Source of the DNA: Escherichia coli
Lineage (GTDB): Bacteria; Pseudomonadota; Gammaproteobacteria; Enterobacterales; Enterobacteriaceae
Assembly: GCF_024298765.1 (NCBI RefSeq)
Contig: NZ_CP101210.1
Length of the DNA: 64,000 nucleotides
Reading direction: 5' to 3' (one strand)
Shown: positions 6,929 through 55,500 of the stretch, in pieces
Layout of the letters: each line of letters begins with the position of its first letter
Position numbering within the stretch: position 1 is the stretch's first letter
The notes under the pieces: model-generated
Seen by the model: only the letters and a program-made list of their open reading frames with translations
Databases searched by the model: none
Told to the model about the DNA's origin: nothing
Translations under genes and position numbers: made by a program

Positions 6929-8470
<1,542 letters not shown>

Positions 8471-8602
8471 AAAAGTTTGATGCTCAAAGAATTAAACTTC
8501 GTAATGAATTACGTGTTCACTCTTGAGACTTGGTATTCATTTTTCGTCTTGCGACGTTAAGAATCCGTATCTTCGAGTGCCCACACAGATTGTCTGATAA
8601 AT

Positions 8603-8614
8603 TGTTAAAGAGCA
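8603..8614 (-). promoter_or_regulatory. rrn leader boxA antitermination element
   Basis: Reverse complement is TGCTCTTTAACA, upstream of the 16S 5' end. A second boxA-like copy (tgctctttaaa) lies in the 16S-23S spacer near 6684..6694. Confidence 0.6.
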
Positions 8615-8651
8615 GTGCCGCTTCGCTTTTTCTCAGCGGCGCGGGGTGTGC

Positions 8652-8679
8652 ATGATACACTTTCCCGCTACAGAGTCAA
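8652..8679 (-). promoter_or_regulatory. rrn P2 promoter
   Basis: Minus-strand sequence is TTGACT-N16-TATCAT (ttgactctgtagcgggaaagtgtatcat). The position matches rrnB P2 as I recall it. Confidence 0.7.
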
Positions 8680-8770
8680 GCATTTATTTTTGCTTTCTCT
8701 GCCGGAATTCTCAGGAGAACCCCGCTGACCCGGCGGCGTGTTTGCCGTTGTTCCGTGTCAGTGGTGGCGC

Positions 8771-8822
8771 ATTATAGGGAGTTATTCCGGCCTGACAAGA
8801 GGAAATTTAAAATAATTTTCTG
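8771..8822 (-). promoter_or_regulatory. rrn P1 promoter with A/T-rich UP element
   Basis: Minus-strand sequence is TTGTCA-N16-TATAAT, followed by the discriminator gcgccacc. It is preceded by gaaaattattttaaatttcc (UP element). Confidence 0.8.
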
Positions 8823-8843
8823 ACCGCGCAACATTCAACCAAA

Positions 8844-9701
8844 TCAGTCTAAAACTGCCAGTTTTTCGAGCGTTTCGAAGCCGTAACGCTGTAAAACGGG
8901 CAATAATTGTTCAGCTTCTGGCGTCATTGCCATACAAAAGGCAATATTCGCATCGGCAGATTTTGCATCCGGGGCTTCATGTTCTAACAGCCAGGCCGTT
9001 CGGCGAGCAATCGCTGCGCCAGAATCCACCAGCCGGGTTCCCTCTGGCAGCACCTGTAACAGTTCTTCTTGTAGTAGAGGGAAATGGGTACACCCCAGTA
9101 CAACGGTATCTGGCGGCTCTTTCATTCTTAACCACGGACGCAAGATACGTTTTAGCGCATCCAGAGAAACATCTTCGCCATGCAGCTTCGCTTCAGCCAA
9201 CTCGACCATCTCTGCCGAGCCCAGCATTTCTATCTGGCATTCATTAGCGAAACGCGCGATCAGCTCATGAGTATAAGAACGTTTAACAGTTCCGCGGGTT
9301 GCCAGTAATCCGACAATGCCATTTGCCGTCAGACGTGCAGCAGGTTTAATCGCCGGCACGACACCAACAACCGGGAAGTCGAACTTTTCGCGTAATGCAG
9401 GAAGTGAAACGGTACTGGCGGTGTTGCAAGCGACCACAGCCAGCGCAAGGGGATAACGTTCTTGCACTGCGGTGACAATTGCCACCACTCGCTCAACAAT
9501 AAACTCTTCGCTTTTTTCGCCATACGGGAAAGCGACGTTATCGAAAGCATAAATGTAATGGAGATCCGGTAAGAGATGCCGGATCTCGTCATAGACCGAC
9601 AACCCACCGACGCCGGAGTCAAACACCAGCACGGTGGGACGTGGTTCAGAAGGTGTAGCTGCCAGACAAGGTGTATTCCCGTCCTGCAGTTTGGTAGCCA
9701 T
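8844..9701 (-). CDS. murI: glutamate racemase
   Basis: ORF 8844..9713. The ATG at 9701 gives [37 protein letters not shown]..., 285 aa. An alternative start at 9713 adds MRQS. The 5' end overlaps the btuB 3' end by 56 nt. Confidence 0.93.
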
Positions 9702-41878: not shown

Positions 41879-44160
<2,282 letters not shown>

Positions 44161-44387
44161 TGTTGGTTAAAGAGATGTAGATCAAATTGATCGTAATTAA
44201 GACTTTTTGATTATGTCCGATTTAGGATAAATGCTTTATAAAAAAGGGTTTTAGATTTGTATCCTTCAAGTAATGAGGGAGAAAACAAGGCTGATAACCT
44301 TATTTTCCCGCCCTCATTTCGAGGCAGCATTTTGTGCTCTGTTTAAAATTTGTGATCACTGTGTGATTTTCACAAAAGGCACACTAT

Positions 44388-45281
<894 letters not shown>

Positions 45282-45321
45282 TTACCTCATCAATCGCTTA
45301 TCGTTATATGTTGTGTTGTGC

Positions 45322-45356
45322 ACATCTATCCGTTTAGACGTCCAGATGTAAAGATG
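45322..45356 (-). promoter_or_regulatory. MetJ operator (tandem met boxes) of metF
   Basis: The minus strand reads catctttacatctggacgtctaaacggatagatgt, containing tandem 8-bp repeats related to AGACGTCT. Confidence 0.75.
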
Positions 45357-45659
45357 AAGGAAAAGCCGAAGGGCGTCAACCGAAAAATAACCAATGATGG
45401 TGAGGAAAAATCAGGGAAGATGAAAAAAACTCATCTTAATTAGAGGCGATAAAAGATTTCTCTATAGCACAATCCACCTCGCACGTTTTGACTCATATTC
45501 TGACAACACAGCGACACCTGGGCTAATTCGAAAAACAACGTCCTGCCACCGGATGGTGATGCTAAGGCATCTGATTCGGCCTGCGCCCTCGCGTAGGCCG
45601 AATACAGGATCTGCGCAATCAACGGGTAACAAACAGTTGAGTCAATTCAGTGCGCACTT

Positions 45660-47213
45660 TTATTTGATATCCTTCACGCGCATACCGTTGAGCTGTTCAT
45701 CCGTAATGGTGTTGCCCGCTTTGAAGTAATCAACCACCGCGTGATAAACGTAATAACCGCCCGTTGTGTTACGCGCTTTCCCTTCGGTAAAGGCGGTAAA
45801 ACCATCTCCACCATCAGCAAGGAAACTCTGAGTAGCAATGTGATAAACCGTCGCATCTTCAATGGGTTTGCCATTCAGAGCCAGTGTGATTACCCGCTGA
45901 CCAACCGGCTTGCTGCTGTCGTACTTCATTTCCAGGCCTTTCGATACCTGTAAAACGCCATTGCTTAAACTTGCGCCGTGTTCCATCAGACTGCGTAATT
46001 GTTTACCCGTGAGTTCCATCGTCACCAGTTCGTTGGGGAACGGGAACGTACTGATGACGCCGCCCATCGTGATCGCCCCTGCGGGGATCTCATTGCGAAT
46101 GCCGCCAGAGTTGGTTAACGCCAATTGGGTGTTTTTACCCGCCGCTACCAGTAAAGCGTCAGCCGCCAGGTTCCCGAGGGAAGCCGATTCACCATAGGCA
46201 CGTTTTAATTCAACCGGCGATTGCGCCACCGTTTGTTGCACCACTTCATCAAGCTTTTTATTCCAGCCGTCGATCACCTGTTTCGTTTGTGGATCGGGCT
46301 TCCACTCGTCAGCGTAAATGGTTTTAAGCTCGAAGTTTTTCACCGTAAAATTATGCGGCTTCTCTTTGTAGTCGAGAACCAGTTTGCCCACATCAATCCC
46401 GCCGCTGTCAGTGGAGAGGATGAGCGTATTGCCGACTTTAATCGGTTCCGGCGTACCCACATGTGCATGTCCGGTGATCAAAATATCCAGCCCTTTCACC
46501 TGACTTGCCGTCTGAATATCTTTATCCAGCGCGCGACGCACATCTGTGCCTCCCATACTGGACTGGCGGGCCGGAACACCTTCATGGATCAGGGCGACGG
46601 TCAAATCAACCTTGCCTTTAAGTTCATCGATATAACGTTGTAGCCATTTAATTTCATCACGCGCCTCAATACCCACTCGCGTGGCAGCAGATACTGTGTC
46701 ATTAAAGGCAAATACACCGTGCAAACCTATAACGCCTATTTTCACACCGTCTTTTTCGATGATGGTATAGGGCTTATCCCAGAATGATTTACTGCTGTTC
46801 TGATAAAAAACATTGCCCTGCACAATCGGGAATTTTGCCTGACTCAACTGTAATAATGTGTTGTCCCAGCCGTGGTCAAATTCATGGTTGCCTATCGTGA
46901 CGGCATCAAACGGCATAGTATTCATAATATCGATAATAGCCTTACCTTTGGTCAGGCTGCTGATATATGGCCCGGTAAAATAGTCGCCCGCATCAAAAAA
47001 CCATGTCGCTTTATTTTTTGCTTTTTCTTGCTTAACCAGCGTAGTGATATTTGCCCAGCCGCCAATATCCCGTTTACCGTCAGCGATCCACGGCACTTTA
47101 TAAGGTTCTACATGCGCATGGAGGTCGTTGGTATAAATAATAGTGACATCTTTAGCGCAAGCCCAGAACGGCAGTGTTAATGCGATACCCGCAGCAAGTA
47201 TTTTAATTTTCAT
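45660..47213 (-). CDS. secreted metallophosphoesterase / 5'-nucleotidase-family protein, paralogue A
   Basis: ORF 45660..47219; the track start is a TTG codon. The ATG at 47213 (RBS aaggga, 6-nt spacer) gives [34 protein letters not shown]..., 517 aa. It has a signal peptide and the motifs NDLH, GDYFTG, GNHEFD, HEG and GHAH, plus a 5'-nucleotidase C-terminal-type domain (NSGGIR, STFPFPN). Confidence 0.88.
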
Positions 47214-47272
47214 AAACAATCCCTTTCAGTGAGATAAAGGATTGCTACATTACGTTCTGAAAGACTTATTTA

Positions 47273-47288
47273 TGTGAGAGTAATCACA
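47273..47288. promoter_or_regulatory. perfect CRP-consensus palindrome TGTGA-N6-TCACA
   Basis: tgtgagagtaatcaca read directly. It is centred in the 132-bp divergent region between paralogue A and the Zn-ribbon ORF. A TAATGT hexamer on the minus strand (47247..47252) would put the site near -41.5 for paralogue A. Confidence 0.6.
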
Positions 47289-47345
47289 TCTGCAGGGGAT
47301 AGTTGCCGGACAAAATCAACGACCTTGTGAAATCGTTGGTGATAT

Positions 47346-48470
47346 ATGTCGACTCTGTTTACGATTAATGCCTGTAAAACGTTCGGTTGCCGAAATTTGG
47401 GATTGGCCTCATCGGAAGATTACAGTTGGCCAGACTATAAACTGGGTTATCCGGCACTGCACTGTCGGGCATGTGGCAGTTACCCGCCGTTGTTTGACGA
47501 GCAACAATTTCGTGACTGGTTGTCAGTTCACTTATCTACGTGGGCCTCGGAGAAGGGTCATTTCTGCCCGGTATGTTATGGCACAGACATGATTTGTTAT
47601 GGTCACAATCCACAGGGTTCGCAACGCATTCAATGCCGTAACTGCAAAAAAGTCTGGACGCCTAAACAGTATCAGAAAGAAATTACGCATCCCCAGGCCA
47701 TTGAAACCGTTCAACTGTTCATACCCTTTCAAGGGGCCAGCGCAGTACAAAAACTGTATGTTTTAGTCAGTCTTGACGCCACTCGTGGCAACATTCTTCA
47801 TCTCTCCACGAATTATACGCAACATCAGACAGGAGACAGTCTGCGGTACAGTTACAAGGGCAACACAGAACCAACTATGCACCATCGCGATATCGTGCAG
47901 AAGGTAGATATGCGTGAAGCGCAATTCTTGCGCCGGAGCCAGTTCGATGAAATTCAGTATGGCAGTGCTGTACTCAAGCGCAACGGTAAGGGAGCCATAC
48001 TACGCCCGGTTATCACGGCACACGGGCATTTCAGAATACTGAAAATCCGCTATCCAGATGTCAAAACGCATATTATTTCACACGAATGTTTTCTAAGAGG
48101 CGCAATTATTACAGCCTGGGCAGATCAGTTCCGCCAACAACAAGGTGAACTTTGGTTCGTAGAAGAAGAAATCAGTGACAGTAACGCTGATACGCCCTGG
48201 CATTTTAAGGGAACGACATACCATGGTTGGTGGCAAAATCAGTGGCAGCGCTGGGAGCAGGGGAATAACTGCAAGATGGTCTGCCTACTCACGGGAGCCA
48301 GCTTAGAAAGGGGCGCAAATGTTTCTCTGGCAACCAGTCGTTGTTTTATCACATGGCTGACAGACCAACACGACTTTACCCAAAGCGCGTTATTATCCGC
48401 AGGTCGCGTAACGCAAATGCTGACCTCACTGGCGTTAAAATACAATGAATCGCTCACTCCATCTTGTTAG
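47346..48470 (+). CDS. hypothetical protein with two N-terminal zinc ribbons (second one IS1 InsA-like)
   Basis: 374-aa ORF with an ATG start. Cys pairs are C10/C15 + C40/C43 and C74/C77 + C97/C100 (CPVCYGTDMICYGHNPQGSQRIQCRNCKKVW). The C-terminal roughly 270 aa has no motif I can place, apart from a W/Q-rich patch HGWWQNQWQRWEQ. Confidence 0.7.
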   Translation: MSTLFTINACKTFGCRNLGLASSEDYSWPDYKLGYPALHCRACGSYPPLFDEQQFRDWLSVHLSTWASEKGHFCPVCYGTDMICYGHNPQGSQRIQCRNCKKVWTPKQYQKEITHPQAIETVQLFIPFQGASAVQKLYVLVSLDATRGNILHLSTNYTQHQTGDSLRYSYKGNTEPTMHHRDIVQKVDMREAQFLRRSQFDEIQYGSAVLKRNGKGAILRPVITAHGHFRILKIRYPDVKTHIISHECFLRGAIITAWADQFRQQQGELWFVEEEISDSNADTPWHFKGTTYHGWWQNQWQRWEQGNNCKMVCLLTGASLERGANVSLATSRCFITWLTDQHDFTQSALLSAGRVTQMLTSLALKYNESLTPSC

Positions 48471-48542
48471 TCAATACACTCGACAAACGACCATAAATTA
48501 AGAGAGATCACTACCTTTCATTTAATTAAATATATAAATGTA

Positions 48543-48567
48543 TGACCGTGAAATATAATCATGGTCA
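48543..48567. promoter_or_regulatory. inverted repeat TGACCGTGA-N7-TCATGGTCA (candidate operator)
   Basis: Read directly. The arms are 9 bp with one mismatch. It lies in the 229-bp A+T-rich region upstream of paralogue B. Confidence 0.35.
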
Positions 48568-48589
48568 ATGTTTAATTAATAACATTATT

Positions 48590-48605
48590 TGTTACTAAGA
48601 TCACA
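48590..48605. promoter_or_regulatory. CRP-like site TGTTA-N6-TCACA
   Basis: tgttactaagatcaca has one mismatch to the TGTGA-N6-TCACA core. It lies about 100 bp upstream of the paralogue B start. Confidence 0.4.
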
Positions 48606-48702
48606 TAATACTTTTCTGAACTATGCTTACATAAAATAAGACACGATGTGCCTTTTATTTAAATAATTCAACAAATGTAACACACCCTATCCAGGAGGGA
48701 TG

Positions 48703-50253
48703 ATGAAAACTGTATTTACAACATTATCAGTCATATTCGGCGTGATATTTTCTCACAGTGTTCTAGCTCAGGACGTTACTATTTATTATACGAATGACAT
48801 TCACGCACATGTCAATCCGGCAAAAATCCTCGCTGTTGATAAGAACAGACTTATAGGTGGTATGGCTAATATTGCAGGCATCGTTAATGAAGCGAAGAAA
48901 AAAAGCAAAGATGTGTTTTTCTTTGATGCAGGCGACTATTTTACCGGGCCGTATATCAGCACCCTGACCAAAGGTGAAGCTATTATTGATATCATGAACA
49001 CTATGCCCTTTGATGCGGTGTCTGTTGGTAATCACGAGTTCGATCACGGTGTGCCCAATATGGTGTCTCAGTTATCAAAAGCAAAATTTCCCATTCTGCT
49101 GGGAAATATCTACTACACCGATACGAATAAACCAGTTTGGGATCATCCGTGGACCATTATCGAAAAAGATGGTTTAAAGATTGGTGTGATTGGATTGCAT
49201 GGCGCATTCGCTTTCTATGATACAGTCGCGGCAAAAGCACGTGAAGGCGTAGAAGCCAGAGACGAAATTAAATATTTAAATAAAGCACTTGCAGAATTAA
49301 AAGGCAAAGTCGACATTACCGTTTTGCTAATTCACGAAGGTGTCCCGGCGCGTCAATCAAGCTTTGGTAGTAAAGATGTGGAGCGGCTACTACAGGCAGA
49401 TATTGAGACAGCTAAAAAAGTGAATGGTGTTGATGTCTTAATTACCGGTCACGCACATGTCGGAACACCGCAACCAATAAAAGTTAATAACACATTAATT
49501 GTATCTACCGATGCATACGGCACCAACATCGGAAAACTTGTGCTTGATTACAATCCGAAAACGAAGAAAATTGATAGTTATAATGGTGAGTTAATCACCA
49601 TCTTTGCAGATCAATTTAAACCTGACACCATCGTTCAAAATACTATTGATAAATGGAGTGCAAAGCTTAACAAAATAACACAGGAAGTTGTCGGCCATTC
49701 TCCCGTAGTTTTAACACGTGAGTATGGTAGTTCCTCTTCTACCGGCAACCTTATTCTTGATGCAATGATGGAAAAAACACCTGATGCCGTTGCCGGATTT
49801 CAAAATAGCGGTGGGATTCGAGCTGATTTTCCTAAAGGCGATATCACACTGGGAGATGTTATTAGCACATTCCCCTTTAATAATGACCTCATCGAGATGG
49901 ATTTGACGGGCCGCGATCTCAAATCATTGATGACGCATGCAACCAATCTAACTAACGGTGTGTTACAAGTTTCTAAAAGTGTTGCGGTTGTCTATGACAG
50001 CAAAAAACCCCTCAACCAACGGTTAATCTCTTTCACCATTAACGGCAAACCTGTGGAAGATAATCAAACATATCGTATTGCCACGCACTCCTTTTGTGCC
50101 AGTGGTGGTGACGGTTTTGAAGCATTTTTGAATGGAAAAAATGTGAAGACGATACCGGGAACAACCTCGGCGGAATCTATCATCGATTATTTCAAAAATC
50201 ATAAACCTGTCACCCCAGACTTAACTAAACGAGTCATGGACGTCGCCAAATAA
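48703..50253 (+). CDS. secreted metallophosphoesterase / 5'-nucleotidase-family protein, paralogue B
   Basis: ORF 48700..50253. RBS aggagg at 48693..48698 favours the second ATG (48703). Protein starts MKTVFTTLSVIFGVIFSHSVLAQDVTIYYTNDIHAH... It has a signal peptide, the same metallophosphoesterase motif series, and NSGGIR / STFPFNN in the C-terminal domain. Confidence 0.88.
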   Translation: MKTVFTTLSVIFGVIFSHSVLAQDVTIYYTNDIHAHVNPAKILAVDKNRLIGGMANIAGIVNEAKKKSKDVFFFDAGDYFTGPYISTLTKGEAIIDIMNTMPFDAVSVGNHEFDHGVPNMVSQLSKAKFPILLGNIYYTDTNKPVWDHPWTIIEKDGLKIGVIGLHGAFAFYDTVAAKAREGVEARDEIKYLNKALAELKGKVDITVLLIHEGVPARQSSFGSKDVERLLQADIETAKKVNGVDVLITGHAHVGTPQPIKVNNTLIVSTDAYGTNIGKLVLDYNPKTKKIDSYNGELITIFADQFKPDTIVQNTIDKWSAKLNKITQEVVGHSPVVLTREYGSSSSTGNLILDAMMEKTPDAVAGFQNSGGIRADFPKGDITLGDVISTFPFNNDLIEMDLTGRDLKSLMTHATNLTNGVLQVSKSVAVVYDSKKPLNQRLISFTINGKPVEDNQTYRIATHSFCASGGDGFEAFLNGKNVKTIPGTTSAESIIDYFKNHKPVTPDLTKRVMDVAK

Positions 50254-50293
50254 AATCTCATTTATCAGTCAATTTATTTAACAAGGAATGCGA

Positions 50294-51913
50294 ATGAAAA
50301 CAGCGCAGCGTACTTTATTTGCCGCAACATTGCTGACTATTTTTTCGACCTCAGTTATGGCGCAGGATGTCACGATTATTTATACCAATGATCTTCACGC
50401 CCATGTGGATTCCTATAAAGTACCATATGTCGCAGACGGAAAACGCGACATTGGTGGCTTTGCCAATATATCTACGTTAGTAAAACAAGAGAAAGCCAAA
50501 AATAAAGCCACTTTTTATTTTGATGCTGGAGACTATTTCACCGGGCCATATATCAGTAGCCTGACAAAGGGCGAAGCAATAATTGATATTATGAATACCA
50601 TGCCTTTTGACGCAGTATCAATCGGTAATCATGAGTTTGACCATGGCTGGGATAATGCCCTCCGACAATTAAGCAAAGCGAATTTCCCTGTTTTATTAGG
50701 CAATGTTTATCATAAAGAGAGTGAGAAACCCTTCTGGAACAAGCCCTACACCATCCTGGAAAAAGATGGCATCAGGATTGGTATTGTTGGGCTACACGGC
50801 GTATTTGCATTTAATGACACGGTCTCGGAGCTCTCTCTCCAGGGACTCGATAATGACAATAATAACCGATTTGATAAATCTTCCGCGACCCTCAAGAATC
50901 AGGGGATTGAAGCACGTGATGAAGTAAAGTATTTGCAGCATTATATCGACGAGTTACGTGATAAGGTTGACCTCACCGTGGCGCTGGTTCATGAAGGCGT
51001 ACCGGCGCGTCAGTCCAGCATTGGCAATACAGATGTTAGACGTGCGCTGGATAAAGATATTCAAACCGCAAGCAAGGTGAAAGGATTGGATATTCTGATT
51101 ACCGGGCATGCCCACGTCGGAACGCCAGAACCAATCAAAGTCGGCAACACCTTAATCCTTTCGACTGACAGTGGCGGTATCGATATTGGTAAATTAATCC
51201 TTGATGTCAACCCTACAGCTCGTACTCATAAAGTGAAGAGCTTTGAGCTGAAAACGGTTTATGCCGATGAATGGATACCCGATCCAACCACACAAAAAGT
51301 TATCAATGGCTGGAATAAAAAACTGGCGGATCTTGTACGCCAACCAGTCGGTGAATCATCGATTGCATTAACTCGTGCCTACGGTGAGTCATCGCAACTT
51401 GGCAACCTGTTTACCGATGCAATGCTTGTCGCTGCACCGACTGCACAAATTGCGTTGATAAACTCCGGCAGTTTACGTGCTGATATAAATGCAGGCACGA
51501 TTACCTTTGGTGACATTACCAGTACATTCCCCTTCAAGAATGAACTTACTGAAATGGATCTCAGCGGTAAGGATCTGCGTAACCTACTGGAACACGGGGC
51601 ATCGCTTACCAATGGCATCCTGCAAATGTCAAAAGGCGCAGAAATGCGCTATACCCTGCAGAAACCAGTAGGTCAGCGCATTGTATCTTTTAAAATTAAT
51701 GGTGAAGAGATCGTTGATACGAATATTTACCATGTTGCGACTACGACTTTCCTTGCACTTGGGGGCGATGGTTTTCTGGCATTCAAAGAAGGGAAAAATG
51801 TCCAGGTCCGCGCCGGAAATAACATGTCCAATGTCGTAATCGATTATTTTAAGAAAGGCCACAAGATTACTCCTGCACAGGTAAATGAAATGCGGGTAGA
51901 AGTAAGCAAATAA
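50294..51913 (+). CDS. secreted metallophosphoesterase / 5'-nucleotidase-family protein, paralogue C (with 20-aa net insertion)
   Basis: ORF 50288..51913. RBS aagga at 50283..50287 favours the ATG at 50294. Protein starts [37 protein letters not shown]... It has the same motif series and is closest to paralogue A. Confidence 0.88.
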   Translation: MKTAQRTLFAATLLTIFSTSVMAQDVTIIYTNDLHAHVDSYKVPYVADGKRDIGGFANISTLVKQEKAKNKATFYFDAGDYFTGPYISSLTKGEAIIDIMNTMPFDAVSIGNHEFDHGWDNALRQLSKANFPVLLGNVYHKESEKPFWNKPYTILEKDGIRIGIVGLHGVFAFNDTVSELSLQGLDNDNNNRFDKSSATLKNQGIEARDEVKYLQHYIDELRDKVDLTVALVHEGVPARQSSIGNTDVRRALDKDIQTASKVKGLDILITGHAHVGTPEPIKVGNTLILSTDSGGIDIGKLILDVNPTARTHKVKSFELKTVYADEWIPDPTTQKVINGWNKKLADLVRQPVGESSIALTRAYGESSQLGNLFTDAMLVAAPTAQIALINSGSLRADINAGTITFGDITSTFPFKNELTEMDLSGKDLRNLLEHGASLTNGILQMSKGAEMRYTLQKPVGQRIVSFKINGEEIVDTNIYHVATTTFLALGGDGFLAFKEGKNVQVRAGNNMSNVVIDYFKKGHKITPAQVNEMRVEVSK

Positions 51914-51989
51914 CAAAAACTTATAATACCATTCATTCACTGGATGACATTATTTCTCTCTAAATCAACAATATATAAGAGATATATTT

Positions 51990-52850
51990 ATGTATATAAA
52001 AAAGCACTGGATAGCTTTATCCATTCTATTAATACCTTGCATTGGAAACGCTCAGGAAATTAAAATTGATGAAAGCTGGTTACATCAAAGCTTGAATGTC
52101 ATTGGTCGCACAGACTCTCGCTTTGGCCCAAGACTGACTAACGACCTCTACCCTGAATATACTGTAGCAGGAAGAAAAGACTGGTTTGATTTTTATGGTT
52201 ATGTTGATCTACCAAAATTCTTTGGCGTCGGCAGTCACTATGATGTTGGGATCTGGGATGAGGGCTCACCACTATTTACGGAAATAGAACCTCGGTTTTC
52301 CATTGACAAATTGACCGGATTAAATCTTGCGTTCGGCCCATTTAAAGAATGGTTCATTGCAAACAACTATGTCTATGATATGGGTGACAACCAGTCATCC
52401 CGGCAAAGTACATGGTATATGGGGCTTGGTACAGATATCGACACGGGTCTACCAATTAAGCTTTCTGCCAATATATACGCCAAGTATCAGTGGCAAAACT
52501 ATGGTGCCGCTAATGAAAATGAATGGGACGGATATCGATTCAAAATAAAATATAGCATCCCTCTTACAAATTTATTCGGAGGGCGATTGGTATACAATAG
52601 TTTTACTAACTTTGATTTTGGCTCCGATCTTGCGGACAAGTCACACAATAATAAACGAACCAGTAATGCTATTGCTTCAAGCCATATCCTTTCCCTTCTA
52701 TATGAACACTGGAAATTTGCATTTACACTACGTTATTTTCACAACGGTGGACAATGGAATGCGGGAGAGAAGGTTAACTTCGGAGATGGTCCATTTGAAT
52801 TGAAAAATACAGGATGGGGAACCTATACTACTATTGGTTATCAATTTTAA
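51990..52850 (+). CDS. Tsx-family nucleoside-specific outer-membrane channel paralogue
   Basis: 286-aa ORF with a signal peptide ([23 protein letters not shown]). Long blocks are shared with E. coli Tsx as I recall it ([84 protein letters not shown]). It has a C-terminal aromatic residue ...IGYQF. Confidence 0.9.
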
Positions 52851-53027
52851 ATTAGGTGACATTTTAGATATTGTTACTTAATGTCATTTTGTAATTGTCA
52901 TTAATAACTTCACCATTCACTCTGTTACTTCATCGCTCAACACAAAAGCCCCCTTATTACCGGGGGCACTGACCAAAGGCAAAATGACAATCAATCACCA
53001 CTTCCCCAGGAAGAGGTTTAGGGGTGA

Positions 53028-53058
53028 CAACAAAAGCTGGCAACTGCCAGCTTTTGTT
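53028..53058. terminator. metL terminator (bidirectional-looking hairpin)
   Basis: aacaaaagctggca-a-ctgccagcttttgtt has A/T runs on both sides and lies 10 nt after the metL stop. Confidence 0.75.
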
Positions 53059-53067
53059 CAATAATCA

Positions 53068-55500
53068 CTACAACAACTGCGCCAGCCGGTTAATATCCGA
53101 CTGAATCGCCCCGGCGGTGACGTCGCGCCCTGCACCTGGCCCGCGGATCACCAGCGGGTTGTCGCGATACCAGCGGCTTTCGATGGCAAAGACGTTATCG
53201 CATGGCAGTAGTGATGCCAGCGGATGGTCTTCACGCACCGCTTCCACGCCCACACGCGCTTTGCCATTGGCATCGAAACGCGCCACGTAGCGCAGCACCA
53301 GCCCCATTTCGCGGGCCGCTTCCAGTCGTTGCACCATCTGCTCGTTAAGTTCATCGCCATTTTCAAAGAAATGGTCGATGCTGCCGCCTTCGCAATGGGC
53401 AGGTACCAGTGATTCAACACGTACCTGGTCCGGTTCAATGTTGTAACCCGCTTCACGCGCCAGAATCACCAGCTTGCGCATCACGTCTTTGCCGGAAAGG
53501 TCATCACGCGGGTCAGGCTCGGTTAAGCCCTGCTGCCACGCCTGATCCACCAGTTCGGTAAACGGCACGCTACCGTCGAATTGCAGGAACAGCCAGGAGA
53601 GCGTGCCAGAGAAGATCCCACTGATCGACAAAATGGTATCGCCGCTGTCGATCAGATCGCGCACGGTATGGTTGATCGGCAAACCCGCACCGACAGTGGC
53701 ATTGTACAGCCAGTGACGCCCGGTTTTTTCGAAGGCGTCGTGGATCTGGCGATATTTATTGCTGTCGCTGGCTCCTGCCAGTTTGTTGGCACTGATGACG
53801 TGGAAACCGTGGCTGGCGAAATCAAGATACTGGTCAGCGAGCTGCTGGCTGGCGGTAACGTCCAGCACCACTAAATCATCATACGGGTGGGCGCGCATCC
53901 ACAGGAACAGCGACTCTTCATCCTGCTCGACCGCTTCATCGTTGAAGAAGGCTAACGCGCGGCTGGCGTCCAGCCCGTCATAGCTCAACAGGCTGCGGCG
54001 GCTGTCCACCACGCCTGCCAGCACAAATTCAAAGCCGGTACGCGCCGAAAGCGTGCTCTGCTCACGGGCGAACAGTTCCAGCCAGCGGGAACCGATATTG
54101 CCCTTGCCGAACAATACCAGGCCGATGCGTTTTTCTGCGCGGAAGACGGACTGATGCAGCCCCTGAATCAGGCTTTCGGTCGGGCCGGTGCGCAGTACTG
54201 CCACCAGGCTGATGCCGTCATCGGACTGCCAGGTAAATTCGACCGGCTGGCCTTTCAGTTGCTGCCAGAAGCGGTGGCAATGCAGCGGGTTACGGGTGAC
54301 GCCTGCCCCAACCATCGCCACCAGCGCCAGCCCCTGACGCAGGCGCAGTTCGCCAGGTAATCCCGCTTCGTCGAGGATTTTCAGCGCACTGTCGGCCACT
54401 TCTGAGGTGTAGCAAAATTGCAGCAACTGGCGATCGTTATGCACGCCAACCGCCAGTGGGCGCACCTGAGCACGTTTCAGGATCTGGTCGATCTCTTTAT
54501 GCGTCAGTTTGAAATCCTGGCTGGCGGGCACCTGAAACTCAATCAAGCAGACATCATCATGGCTGGTGACAATACGCGCACCAGTACCGGAGGCCAGCAC
54601 GCGTTCAATGCGCGTGGAACCTTGATCCGGCGTGTAGCTACAGCGCAGTTGCAGGTCGATTTCGCTGCCAGAAACGGGCTGTAAAGTACGGGCATGAAGA
54701 ACGGGAGCCGCCAGACGCGCCAGTTCGCTGGCTTCATCCAGACGCAGCAACGGCAGCAGGCAGGCATCTTTCACTTTACGCGGGTCGGCGCTATATACCC
54801 CGGCGACGTCGCTCCAGATGGTTACGCGAGAAACACCCGCCAGCGCACCGATTTGTGTCGCGGAATAGTCGGAACCGTTACGCCCCAGCAGCACCGTTTC
54901 ACCGGCGTTGTTACAGCTGATAAACCCGGTCACCACCAGACGTTTGCCCGGATGTTGTACCAGTAGCTGTTGCAGCAACGGGTAAGAAAGTCCTTCATCA
55001 ACCTGCGGTTGCGCAGCGCGTTCAGCGCGTAAAAACTCGCGGGCATCAAGCCAGGCCGCTGGCAGCCCTTGTTGATTAAGCACCGCAGACATCAGGCGCG
55101 CCGACCACACTTCACCGTGGCCCACCACTTCCGCATACACCGCGTCGTTAATACCGCTGTCGAGCAACGCCGCCAGGCGCTCAAGATCGCTGACAAAAGC
55201 GCTAATGAGGCTATCGGCTTCTTCGGCGGGTAACAGGCCGCTAATCAGATCGCACTGATAGCGACGCAGCGTTTGTTGAACCTGATGCGCAGAGAGACGA
55301 TCGGTCTGGCTTAGTTTCAACCAGTTAATCAACTGGTTAGTGGTGCTACCGGCGGCGGAAACCACCATCATATCGTCAGGCTGAGAGTACTCCGCCATAA
55401 TGCCCGCGACACGCAAATAACACTTCACATCAGCCAGACTACTGCCACCAAATTTATGCAGTTGACGACCTTTCGCCCCTGCCTGCGCAATCACACTCAT
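53068..55500 (-). CDS. metL: bifunctional aspartokinase II / homoserine dehydrogenase II
   Basis: 810-aa ORF starting MSVIAQAGAKGRQLHKFGGSSLADVKCYLRVAGIMAEY... Confidence 0.97.
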   Translation of the reverse strand: MSVIAQAGAKGRQLHKFGGSSLADVKCYLRVAGIMAEYSQPDDMMVVSAAGSTTNQLINWLKLSQTDRLSAHQVQQTLRRYQCDLISGLLPAEEADSLISAFVSDLERLAALLDSGINDAVYAEVVGHGEVWSARLMSAVLNQQGLPAAWLDAREFLRAERAAQPQVDEGLSYPLLQQLLVQHPGKRLVVTGFISCNNAGETVLLGRNGSDYSATQIGALAGVSRVTIWSDVAGVYSADPRKVKDACLLPLLRLDEASELARLAAPVLHARTLQPVSGSEIDLQLRCSYTPDQGSTRIERVLASGTGARIVTSHDDVCLIEFQVPASQDFKLTHKEIDQILKRAQVRPLAVGVHNDRQLLQFCYTSEVADSALKILDEAGLPGELRLRQGLALVAMVGAGVTRNPLHCHRFWQQLKGQPVEFTWQSDDGISLVAVLRTGPTESLIQGLHQSVFRAEKRIGLVLFGKGNIGSRWLELFAREQSTLSARTGFEFVLAGVVDSRRSLLSYDGLDASRALAFFNDEAVEQDEESLFLWMRAHPYDDLVVLDVTASQQLADQYLDFASHGFHVISANKLAGASDSNKYRQIHDAFEKTGRHWLYNATVGAGLPINHTVRDLIDSGDTILSISGIFSGTLSWLFLQFDGSVPFTELVDQAWQQGLTEPDPRDDLSGKDVMRKLVILAREAGYNIEPDQVRVESLVPAHCEGGSIDHFFENGDELNEQMVQRLEAAREMGLVLRYVARFDANGKARVGVEAVREDHPLASLLPCDNVFAIESRWYRDNPLVIRGPGAGRDVTAGAIQSDINRLAQLL

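Follow-up and report, generated by a model that had tools for sequence, protein, structure and literature searches.

A putative two-layer nucleotide-scavenging locus between metL and metF of Escherichia coli and its transposase-derived partner protein

The nucleoside regulon of Escherichia coli K-12, comprising tsx, deo, udp, cdd, nupC and nupG, is controlled by CytR/DeoR and by cyclic adenosine monophosphate (cAMP) acting with its receptor protein (cAMP-CRP). K-12 also has UshA, its periplasmic 5'-nucleotidase/UDP-sugar hydrolase, which shares a superfamily with CpdB, NadN, CD73 and the Thermus protein 2Z1A, and the nucleoside-specific outer-membrane channel Tsx, known from Protein Data Bank (PDB) structures 1TLW, 1TLY and 1TLZ. 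In the present work, a 64,000-nucleotide stretch of an E. coli genome (contig NZ_CP101210.1 of assembly GCF_024298765.1), the whole of which is called the window below, was analysed for five genes that lie between metF and metL. We read this region as a two-layer locus for the scavenging of extracellular nucleotides that would be controlled by cAMP-CRP and would have a zinc-ribbon protein, here called Zn, as its dedicated regulator, and we give this reading a probability of roughly 0.55. The locus is a clustered form of the known UshA/CpdB/AphA/Tsx scavenging functions, and its new element is Zn, a transposase-derived partner protein. The genes are the following, with positions in the window.

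44388-45278, minus strand: metF, from the open reading frame (ORF) scan
45660-47213, minus strand: gene A (c4898 of strain CFT073), 517 residues, predicted secreted 5'-nucleotidase-family metallophosphoesterase
47346-48470, plus strand: Zn gene (c4897), 374 residues, predicted cytoplasmic, with two Cys4 zinc ribbons of IS1/IS1595 type and a modelled DDE-transposase/integrase-like core of RNase H fold
48703-50253, plus strand: gene B (c4896), 516 residues, predicted secreted 5'-nucleotidase-family paralogue
50294-51913, plus strand: gene C (c4895), 539 residues, predicted secreted paralogue with an insertion of about 20 residues
51990-52850, plus strand: tsx-like gene, tsxL (c4894), 286 residues, predicted Tsx-family outer-membrane nucleoside channel
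53068-55500, minus strand: metL, from the ORF scan

The ORF scan reproduced the five ORFs and the metF and metL coordinates of the original prediction, a note made from the letters of the sequence, together with its intergenic gaps of 132 bp between the divergent A and Zn, 40 bp between B and C, and 76 bp between C and tsxL. In the proposed mechanism, the first layer is ancestral and consists of gene A, encoding a predicted Sec-exported dimetal phosphoesterase, divergent from the gene for the predicted cytoplasmic, transposase-derived Zn. The second layer, acquired by recombination in some E. coli lineages, comprises a divergent Zn allele and a putative operon B-C-tsxL, adding two further ancient paralogues and a second Tsx-type nucleoside channel. 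When glucose is absent, cAMP-CRP would bind a site between A and Zn and activate both divergent promoters from class II positions, and it would act too at a second CRP-like site upstream of B. The three periplasmic enzymes, with differing substrate preferences, would dephosphorylate nucleotides or related phosphoesters, and the released nucleosides, or nucleosides entering through TsxL, would pass to inner-membrane transporters. Zn would bind DNA by its IS1-type ribbons as a locus-specific regulator, probably sensing a nucleoside- or nucleotide-derived signal.

Set beside the described systems, A, B and C share with UshA the Metallophos and 5_nucleotid_C architecture, the metal ligands, the His-Asp dyad, the two base-stacking Phe residues and a predicted cleavable signal peptide, but differ from it in being three linked paralogues beside a channel gene and a dedicated neighbour gene. 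TsxL belongs to the same family as K-12 Tsx, with which it aligns over the whole barrel, but it has many substitutions and its gene appears to be grouped with the nucleotidases in one putative operon. By analogy with the CytR/DeoR regulon, CRP promoters and a dedicated regulator would govern a Tsx channel and nucleoside catabolism, whereas the putative regulator Zn is unrelated to LacI-type and DeoR-type proteins and instead combines IS1-type ribbons with a modelled DDE-like core. In its N-terminal Cys4 ribbon followed by a modelled RNase H-fold core, Zn resembles the transposases of IS1 and IS1595; unlike them, it has an incomplete triad, is usually single-copy and syntenic, lacks inverted repeats and is under purifying selection.

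The functional reading of the locus is reasonable and is already in print. The region was published as GR31 (metL..metF), the same 7.8-kb region as here, in the genome paper of the avian pathogenic E. coli (APEC) strain BEN2908 (PLoS One 2026), with the same functional inference (PMC12928451). That account, as far as its GR31 passages go, is in silico only and handles the region as one unit absent from other strains, and those passages make no mention of the zinc-ribbon gene or the CRP site, nor of A-Zn as an ancestral pair or of a recombination tract (PMC12928451). The original prediction had known of no description of the cluster; this no longer holds, as crystal structures of A exist in addition to the GR31 account. 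For c4894-c4899, literature searches on locus tags, PDB codes and gene names returned only the BEN2908 paper and one on TosR, and neither biochemistry nor genetics of these genes was found.

All three enzymes are matched by the Pfam models Metallophos (PF00149; 43-49 bits, cutoff 21.5) and 5_nucleotid_C (PF02872; 127-135 bits, cutoff 23.6, E 1e-36 to 4e-39), and the motifs NDxH, GDYFTG, GNHEFD, HEG and GHAH are unvarying across them, in agreement with the earlier statement that the three paralogues carry the full motif series and the C-terminal domain. Gene product A is 57% identical to B and 68% identical to C, and the three are 26-28% identical to K-12 UshA. The roles of the UshA residues are known from structural work on that enzyme, and alignment places all of them in A, B and C: the metal ligands D41, H43, D84, N116, H217 and H252, the catalytic pair H117/D120, and the substrate residues R410, F429, N431, F498 and D504. 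Retention of these catalytic and substrate residues predicts that A, B and C are probably active nucleotide phosphoesterases. By sequence they form a separate subfamily, for which no biochemical characterisation was found in the literature searched.

Besides the structure of A itself, the closest solved structure is that of Thermus 2Z1A (E 1e-46). The product of gene A is about 99% identical over residues 19-517 to PDB entries 3IVD/3IVE ("Nucleotidase"), which we take to be structural-genomics entries for CFT073 c4898 with uridine and cytidine bound. The same protein is thus known as a structure only, as no paper on or biochemical characterisation of 3IVD/3IVE was found in the literature searched by PDB code. 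The signal peptides suggest that A, B and C are periplasmic, and the cleavage site read by eye in A, between ACA and KD after residue 20, lies near residue 19, where the crystallised construct starts. Gene A evolves under a ratio of nonsynonymous to synonymous substitution (dN/dS) of 0.03-0.05.

Assignment of the last ORF to the Tsx family was confirmed by Pfam Channel_Tsx (234.9 bits, cutoff 27.2, E 1.5e-69) and by the NCBIfam Tsx model PRK15106, the cutoff of which (311) is passed with 492.8 bits. TsxL aligns with the solved Tsx structure 1TLW over the whole barrel (387 bits, residues 29-286, 258 residues), has a 5-residue deletion relative to K-12 Tsx, and shares no more than 55-60% identity with its Tsx-like counterparts in the related clusters of other genera. 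It is predicted to be a nucleoside channel and is presumably a second copy alongside the normal tsx. The BEN2908 paper gives its identity to Tsx P0A261 as 67.3% (PMC12928451).

Control of the locus was assessed from its two intergenic regions, in which the following features were located.

47214-47345: divergent control region of A and Zn, its length kept at 116-153 bp over about 55 loci and at 128-138 bp in most
47273-47288: perfect CRP-type site TGTGAgagtaaTCACA (TGTGA-N6-TCACA), its centre 67.5 and 65.5 nt away from the start codons of A and Zn, respectively
47247-47252, minus strand: TAATGT, putative -10 element of the A promoter at 28.5-33.5 nt from the centre of the CRP site
47317-47338, plus strand: kept inverted repeat CAACGA-N10-TCGTTG just 5' of the Zn start, its 3' arm touching the GGTGA ribosome-binding site
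48471-48702, plus strand: control region of B-C-tsxL, A+T-rich (28% G+C)
48590-48605: CRP-like site upstream of B with one mismatch, followed by TTTCTGAAC at 48613-48621

The palindrome between A and Zn is the perfect CRP site that the original prediction had pointed to. Only three sites with at most one mismatch to the CRP consensus occur in the window, and two of the three are in the promoter regions of this locus. Over the roughly 55 loci compared, the TGTGA/TCACA half-sites stay at a fixed position while the 6-bp spacer varies freely, which is the mark expected of a functional CRP site, and on this conservation signature the site at 47273-47288 is predicted to be one. The half-sites are kept also beside C-like genes, where the Zn partner is 36-40% identical, and in Vibrio, where it is 29% identical. 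On the A side of the control-region alignment a block TAAnGT is kept, and the spacing of the A promoter would fit a class II CRP promoter. With the UshA residues kept in the enzymes and the CRP site kept across genera, the earlier notion of an envelope-located nucleotide-processing module under catabolite control stands, as a prediction.

Three further elements are candidate operators. The first is the inverted repeat upstream of Zn, and the second consists of 7-bp arms, CTTTCAG...CTGAAAG, 27 nt apart in a conserved block on either side of the putative A promoter. The third, TTTCWGAAC, stands behind both CRP-like sites (47254-47262 and 48613-48621) and has five matches in the window against 1.1 expected. 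An alternative reading of the inverted repeat as an RNA hairpin is unsupported because the arm substitutions in other genera are uncompensated; the repeat matches no Rfam family.

The zinc-ribbon protein had been called an orphan, which proved wrong, as Zn accompanies nucleotidases, and other genes of nucleoside catabolism, as a conserved partner. In the window protein, the IS1/IS1595-type zinc ribbon at residues 74-105 is sub-threshold (23.2 bits, cutoff 28), and among 47 diverse members of the Zn family the transposase-type zinc-binding model NF050000 matches 34, with a best E of 1.8e-10. The eight cysteines of the two Cys4 ribbons are almost invariant in the family, as are R197 and H228. 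An AlphaFold2 model built on an alignment of the 47 diverse members reached a predicted local distance difference test score (pLDDT) of 94.3 and a predicted template modelling score of 0.93, compared with a pLDDT of 47 from a shallow alignment (22 sequences, 56-80% identity). Foldseek returned an RNase H-like fold for this model with weak agreement, and the core of Zn is modelled as a DDE-transposase/integrase-like RNase H fold. Zn has no Pfam family; searches of Zn and its relatives with Pfam, NCBIfam, PHROGs and PADLOC gave only the zinc ribbon and no defence-system match, transposase catalytic-domain models did not match Zn, and a Zn profile run against PDB sequences gave only uninformative Cys-pattern matches to eukaryotic zinc fingers. 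A reading of Zn as an RNA-guided protein of the TnpB/TldR type was rejected, as the RuvC core, C-terminal zinc finger and adjacent guide RNA that define such proteins are not found together here.

The Zn family is small, with 248-275 clusters at 90% identity. Zn is at one place in almost every genome sampled, and in the few genomes with two places each lies beside a nucleotidase cluster; the gene is syntenic across genera, lacks terminal inverted repeats and shows purifying selection (dN/dS 0.09-0.23). In Enterobacteriaceae and Vibrio, Zn always lies beside A-like or C-like genes. Among distant members, P0181, P0195, P0200, P0212 and P0221 adjoin 5'-nucleotidase-family genes, while P0170 and P0172 are both divergent from a nucleoside phosphorylase gene, accompanied by a NupC-type transporter at P0170 and by a NupG-type symporter and a phosphopentomutase-like gene at P0172. 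At P0174 (locus L081, GCA_006755885.1, 23-5389), the genes on the divergent side encode a class II cyclic nucleoside monophosphate phosphodiesterase, a class B acid phosphatase resembling AphA, and a porin. The P0174 locus has the same logic, an outer-membrane channel with periplasmic nucleotide phosphoesterases, built of unrelated enzymes. In total, a nucleotide or nucleoside theme was found in 8 of the 9 informative contexts of distant members.

A family in which the neighbours change and the theme stays constant, with N-terminal ribbons of the IS1/IS1595 type that we presume to be DNA-binding and with an incomplete acidic set, is most readily accounted for if Zn regulates the use of nucleotides and nucleosides and descends from a transposase, a role to which we give an even chance or slightly better. 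A wider proposal, which we hold tentatively and at somewhat less than even odds, is that the Zn family represents undescribed transcription factors derived from an IS1/IS1595-like transposase and specific to extracytoplasmic nucleotide breakdown and nucleoside uptake and catabolism in Enterobacterales, Vibrio and others, in which the ribbons would read operators and a dead DDE core would sense a ligand or oligomerise.

Several observations weigh against reading the locus as a CRP-controlled scavenging system with Zn as its regulator. A, B and C reach none of the NCBIfam cutoffs for UshA, CpdB, NadN, SoxB or YfkN; with scores as far under the cutoff as 152-169 bits for UshA (cutoff 600) and 121-133 for NadN (cutoff 436), they are not orthologues of UshA, CpdB or NadN. 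Their signal peptides, with AxA-type cleavage sites, were recognised by eye and not by a predictor. The CRP-like site upstream of B is mismatched, and its spacing to any -10 element is ambiguous. Since B-C-tsxL is low in G+C and c4894 is induced only on overexpression of TosR, this part of the locus may be largely silent in laboratory culture. The E. coli form of Zn has no recognisable helix-turn-helix and lacks the linker of 45-60 residues present in distant members, and the distant homologue P0178 has no nucleotide-related neighbour. Finally, part of the acidic set of Zn is kept, E247 being acidic in 100% and D201 in 83% of members.

These acidic residues speak also for a rival explanation, in which Zn is not a regulator but an enzyme or other cytoplasmic partner, such as a nuclease of the RNase H-like type or a protein that processes nucleotides in the same pathway. 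The modelled RNase H-like/DDE fold and the retention of H228 and R197 would suit such a protein, as would the several distant lineages that place Zn directly downstream of a nucleotidase on the same strand, in the manner of an operon partner. However, the DDE triad is not fully conserved, as only 70% of members have an acidic residue at D144; the ribbons at the N-terminus belong to the presumably DNA-binding transposase type; and the variation of the neighbours (nucleotidase; transporter and phosphorylase; porin and phosphatases) around a constant theme is what a regulator would give. We consider a catalytic role for Zn unlikely, though the chief alternative, and retain the regulator as the preferred explanation.

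In order to place the locus among E. coli genomes, it was counted over 5,426 complete genomes. Gene A is present in 1,843 of them (34%). The full form, with B-C-tsxL and the whole 7.8 kb at one place, was found in 658 (12%), a short form with A and Zn only in about 1,185 (22%), and an empty, K-12-like form in about 3,583 (66%), consistent with the expectation that K-12 and most E. coli lack these genes. B-C-tsxL is accompanied by A-Zn in 658 of 658 genomes, in support of the supposed co-inheritance. At least 99% identity was found in 558 of the 658 full-form carriers, and nearly all others are 95-99% identical; several complete genomes with a full form of 96% identity have a second matching place. 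The full form is seen in CFT073, APEC O1, IHE3034, BEN2908, NRG857c, E2348/69 and ATCC 25922, and gene A is carried by UTI89, 536 and an O25b:H4-ST131 genome. According to the BEN2908 paper, GR31 is complete in UTI89 (PMC12928451). Insertion sequences (IS), IS1 or ISVsa5, lie within the island in some carriers (CT30, CS18F and APEC E12049; hits H1, H31 and H71), and in CS18F an IS1 interrupts gene A.

The history of the locus was reconstructed from the following two segments.

45429-53068: segment differing from K-12-type E. coli, by blastn of the empty-site locus L003 and the K-12 locus L079 against the window
About 47,400-53,068: foreign, recombinant tract with the 3' two-thirds of Zn and with B, C and the tsx-like gene, in full-form E. 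coli only

Homology of both empty-site loci to the window stops at 45428 and restarts at 53069. The limits first proposed, 45440-53027, were right in marking a segment that differs from K-12 and inexact at both ends. The two flanking genes had been correctly taken to be close neighbours in K-12, with only 348 bp between metL and metF in MG1655. At the position of the island, empty-form E. coli have 198-199 bp that are unrelated to it and contain an element like a repetitive extragenic palindrome (REP). In the K-12 locus (L079, 4269-4466, 198 bp) this is the REP-like palindrome GCCGGATTAAGCGTTTACGACGAATCCGGCA, and the segment is without a remnant of the lost genes; the possibility that these 198 bp are a leftover of A or Zn was rejected, as no similarity was found.

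In a cross-genus scan, in which each prokaryotic species was represented by a single genome, metB-metL-Zn(-)-A(+)-metF-katG emerged as the gene order of many Enterobacteriaceae. This placement of A-Zn between metL and metF is shared by Salmonella enterica subsp. arizonae, three Klebsiella species (K. pneumoniae, K. oxytoca and K. spallanzanii), many Citrobacter, Escherichia whittamii and cryptic Escherichia, and by Kluyvera, Kosakonia, Phytobacter, Pseudescherichia, Superficieibacter and Pseudocitrobacter. Across these taxa, identity to the corresponding protein of the window is 87-98% for A and 58-82% for Zn. The recurrence of this order in many taxa indicates that the arrangement of K-12 is a deletion and not the baseline, and that, on this comparison, the A-Zn pair is ancestral at metL-metF in Enterobacteriaceae and was lost from K-12-type E. 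coli.

The short form was examined in the blood isolate p11B (L002), which matches the window from 44001 to 48433, followed by 7 bp and then directly by the metL stop codon. Sliding identity of the full form to p11B is 94-100% from metF through A and the intergenic region, falls to 87% at about 47,400-47,700, and is 54-79% further on. Synonymous divergence (dS) between the two E. coli forms is 1.1 for Zn versus 0.09 for A. Other Escherichia share the short-form Zn allele, as their Zn and the short-form Zn are both 75-78% identical to the Zn of the window. Taken together, the identity drop, the high dS of Zn and the shared short-form allele point to an origin of the full form by replacement of about 47,400-53,068 with foreign DNA, with crossovers in Zn and at the end of metL. 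The original prediction of a single insertion of about 7.5 kb has to be given up, since A-Zn is ancestral, K-12 carries a deletion, and only the tract from about 47,400 to 53,068 is foreign.

No homologue of B more than 75% identical was found outside E. coli among 5.8 billion clusters, and the gene order Zn-B-C-Tsx was found in no species representative scanned. Enterobacter, Citrobacter, E. albertii and some E. coli carry, elsewhere on the chromosome, a related module with the gene order Zn(-) A B Tsx C. In the Enterobacter and Citrobacter clusters A, B and C each have their own orthologue, at 91%, 72% and 85-88% identity, so that the three paralogues are ancient and individually maintained. 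This related module, ordered Zn(-) A B (B) Tsx C, was seen in Enterobacter and Citrobacter (L012, L015, L017, L018 and L021), in E. coli SCPM-O-B-8794 (L052), in E. albertii (L053) and in Escherichia sp. MOD1-EC7003 (L010), and some genomes hold it in addition to the metL-metF copy.

The distribution bears on a second rival explanation, in which the enzymes serve host interaction or signal degradation by converting extracellular adenosine tri- or monophosphate to adenosine, or by destroying cyclic di- or oligonucleotides or nicotinamide adenine dinucleotide (NAD) in the gut or urinary tract. This would explain an enrichment in extraintestinal lineages, and the full form is indeed carried by the reference strains CFT073, APEC O1, IHE3034, BEN2908, NRG857c and E2348/69; in addition, CD73 and NAD nucleotidase belong to the same family, and three non-redundant paralogues suggest a wide substrate range. 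However, the module and the A-Zn pair also occur in many environmental and commensal Enterobacteriaceae and in Vibrio, and the module is therefore not a pathogen-specific invention. Catabolism is the purpose suggested by the predicted CRP control and by linked genes for a nucleoside channel, transporters and phosphorylases, and the literature searched contained no experimental evidence tying the locus to virulence. We regard a role in host interaction as distinctly unlikely.

A third rival explanation holds that B-C-tsxL is largely silenced, dispensable cargo that is decaying in E. coli. Fractional G+C content is 0.41 in B, 0.44 in C, 0.39 in the tsx-like gene and 0.28 in the spacer between Zn and B (28-44% in all), against 0.58 in metL, and the line counts of 14/60, 17/60 and 44/60 made by hand in the original prediction were exact on recount. 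The gene c4894 is among those most induced in CFT073 on TosR overexpression (log2 3.3) and is listed with genes induced only under that condition (PMC5956150). The insertion sequences in CT30, CS18F and APEC E12049, and the lack of B-C-tsxL in most A-Zn-bearing E. coli, would also suit such a fate. Against decay, all genes are annotated as intact coding sequences in the genomes listed, the B cluster has 1,714 full-length members versus a few hundred truncated or partial ones, the carriers are as uniform as described above (558 of 658 at least 99% identical, nearly all others at 95-99%), and a CRP-like site lies upstream of B. We find this explanation improbable. A classical mobile genomic island with Zn as the remnant or active transposase that brought the region in, as the transposase-type ribbon and DDE-like fold of Zn, the low G+C content of B-C-tsxL and its patchy presence in E. 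coli might suggest, is highly improbable, since terminal inverted repeats and target duplications are missing, no transfer RNA gene or Rfam match was found at the locus, no integrase is among the ORFs of the region and no flanking direct or inverted repeats were found besides those due to paralogy (as the original prediction had it for integrase, transfer RNA, IS and flanking repeats), Zn is mostly at a single place, syntenic between metL and A, diverging in step with its host under purifying selection, the family has about 150 representatives among 1.84 billion proteins clustered at 50%, unlike an IS family, and the boundaries fall in conserved flanking sequence, at A/Zn and at the metL stop codon, as homologous recombination would produce.

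If the scavenging model is right, many Enterobacteriaceae, including the main extraintestinal pathogenic lineages of E. coli, carry a dedicated, catabolite-controlled nucleotide-scavenging module that escaped study because K-12 lacks it. A, B and C could widen the usable sources of phosphorus, carbon or nitrogen to nucleotides, breakdown products of extracellular DNA and RNA, NAD and nucleotide sugars, and signalling nucleotides of host or bacterial origin are further possible substrates. Sensitivity to phages, colicins and antibiotics that use Tsx may be altered by the second channel. Zn itself is well supported as a protein of transposase origin that became a fixed host gene and is tied again and again to one metabolic theme; as a candidate for a new bacterial regulator class, it can be put to a direct test. 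The locus also shows how a K-12-centred view makes an ancestral gene pair look inserted.

At the metL end of the island one further feature was located.

53029-53058: hairpin with perfect 14-bp arms and an A-run and a T-run on either side, a likely bidirectional terminator

This hairpin probably terminates both the tsx-like gene and metL. It is island-specific and is missing from the short form of p11B, where the Zn ORF (6068-7198 in L002) extends 37 bp into the 3' end of the convergent metL (7162-9594), so that the metL and Zn transcripts would overlap in the short form.

Two short contigs of metagenome-assembled genomes carry Zn/A-type sequences under distant labels: a 3.8-kb contig assigned to 'Bacillota bacterium' (L005) has enterobacterial sequence with A 99% identical to E. 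coli, and a 3.5-kb contig assigned to 'Chryseobacterium sp.' (L050) has Enterobacter-like sequence with C at 71%. Both are most likely binning contamination.

The 381-bp spacer between metF and A contains a 60-residue ORF (45440-45622, minus strand) with no sign of being a gene, and the spacer is about 180 bp longer than its Salmonella or Citrobacter counterpart. The 150 bp beside metF are kept in all E. coli and in other genera and include, at 45333-45350, tandem AGACGTCT-like boxes (tttAGACGTCCAGATGT), which fit the MetJ operator of the metF promoter. The variable segment starts just past these boxes.

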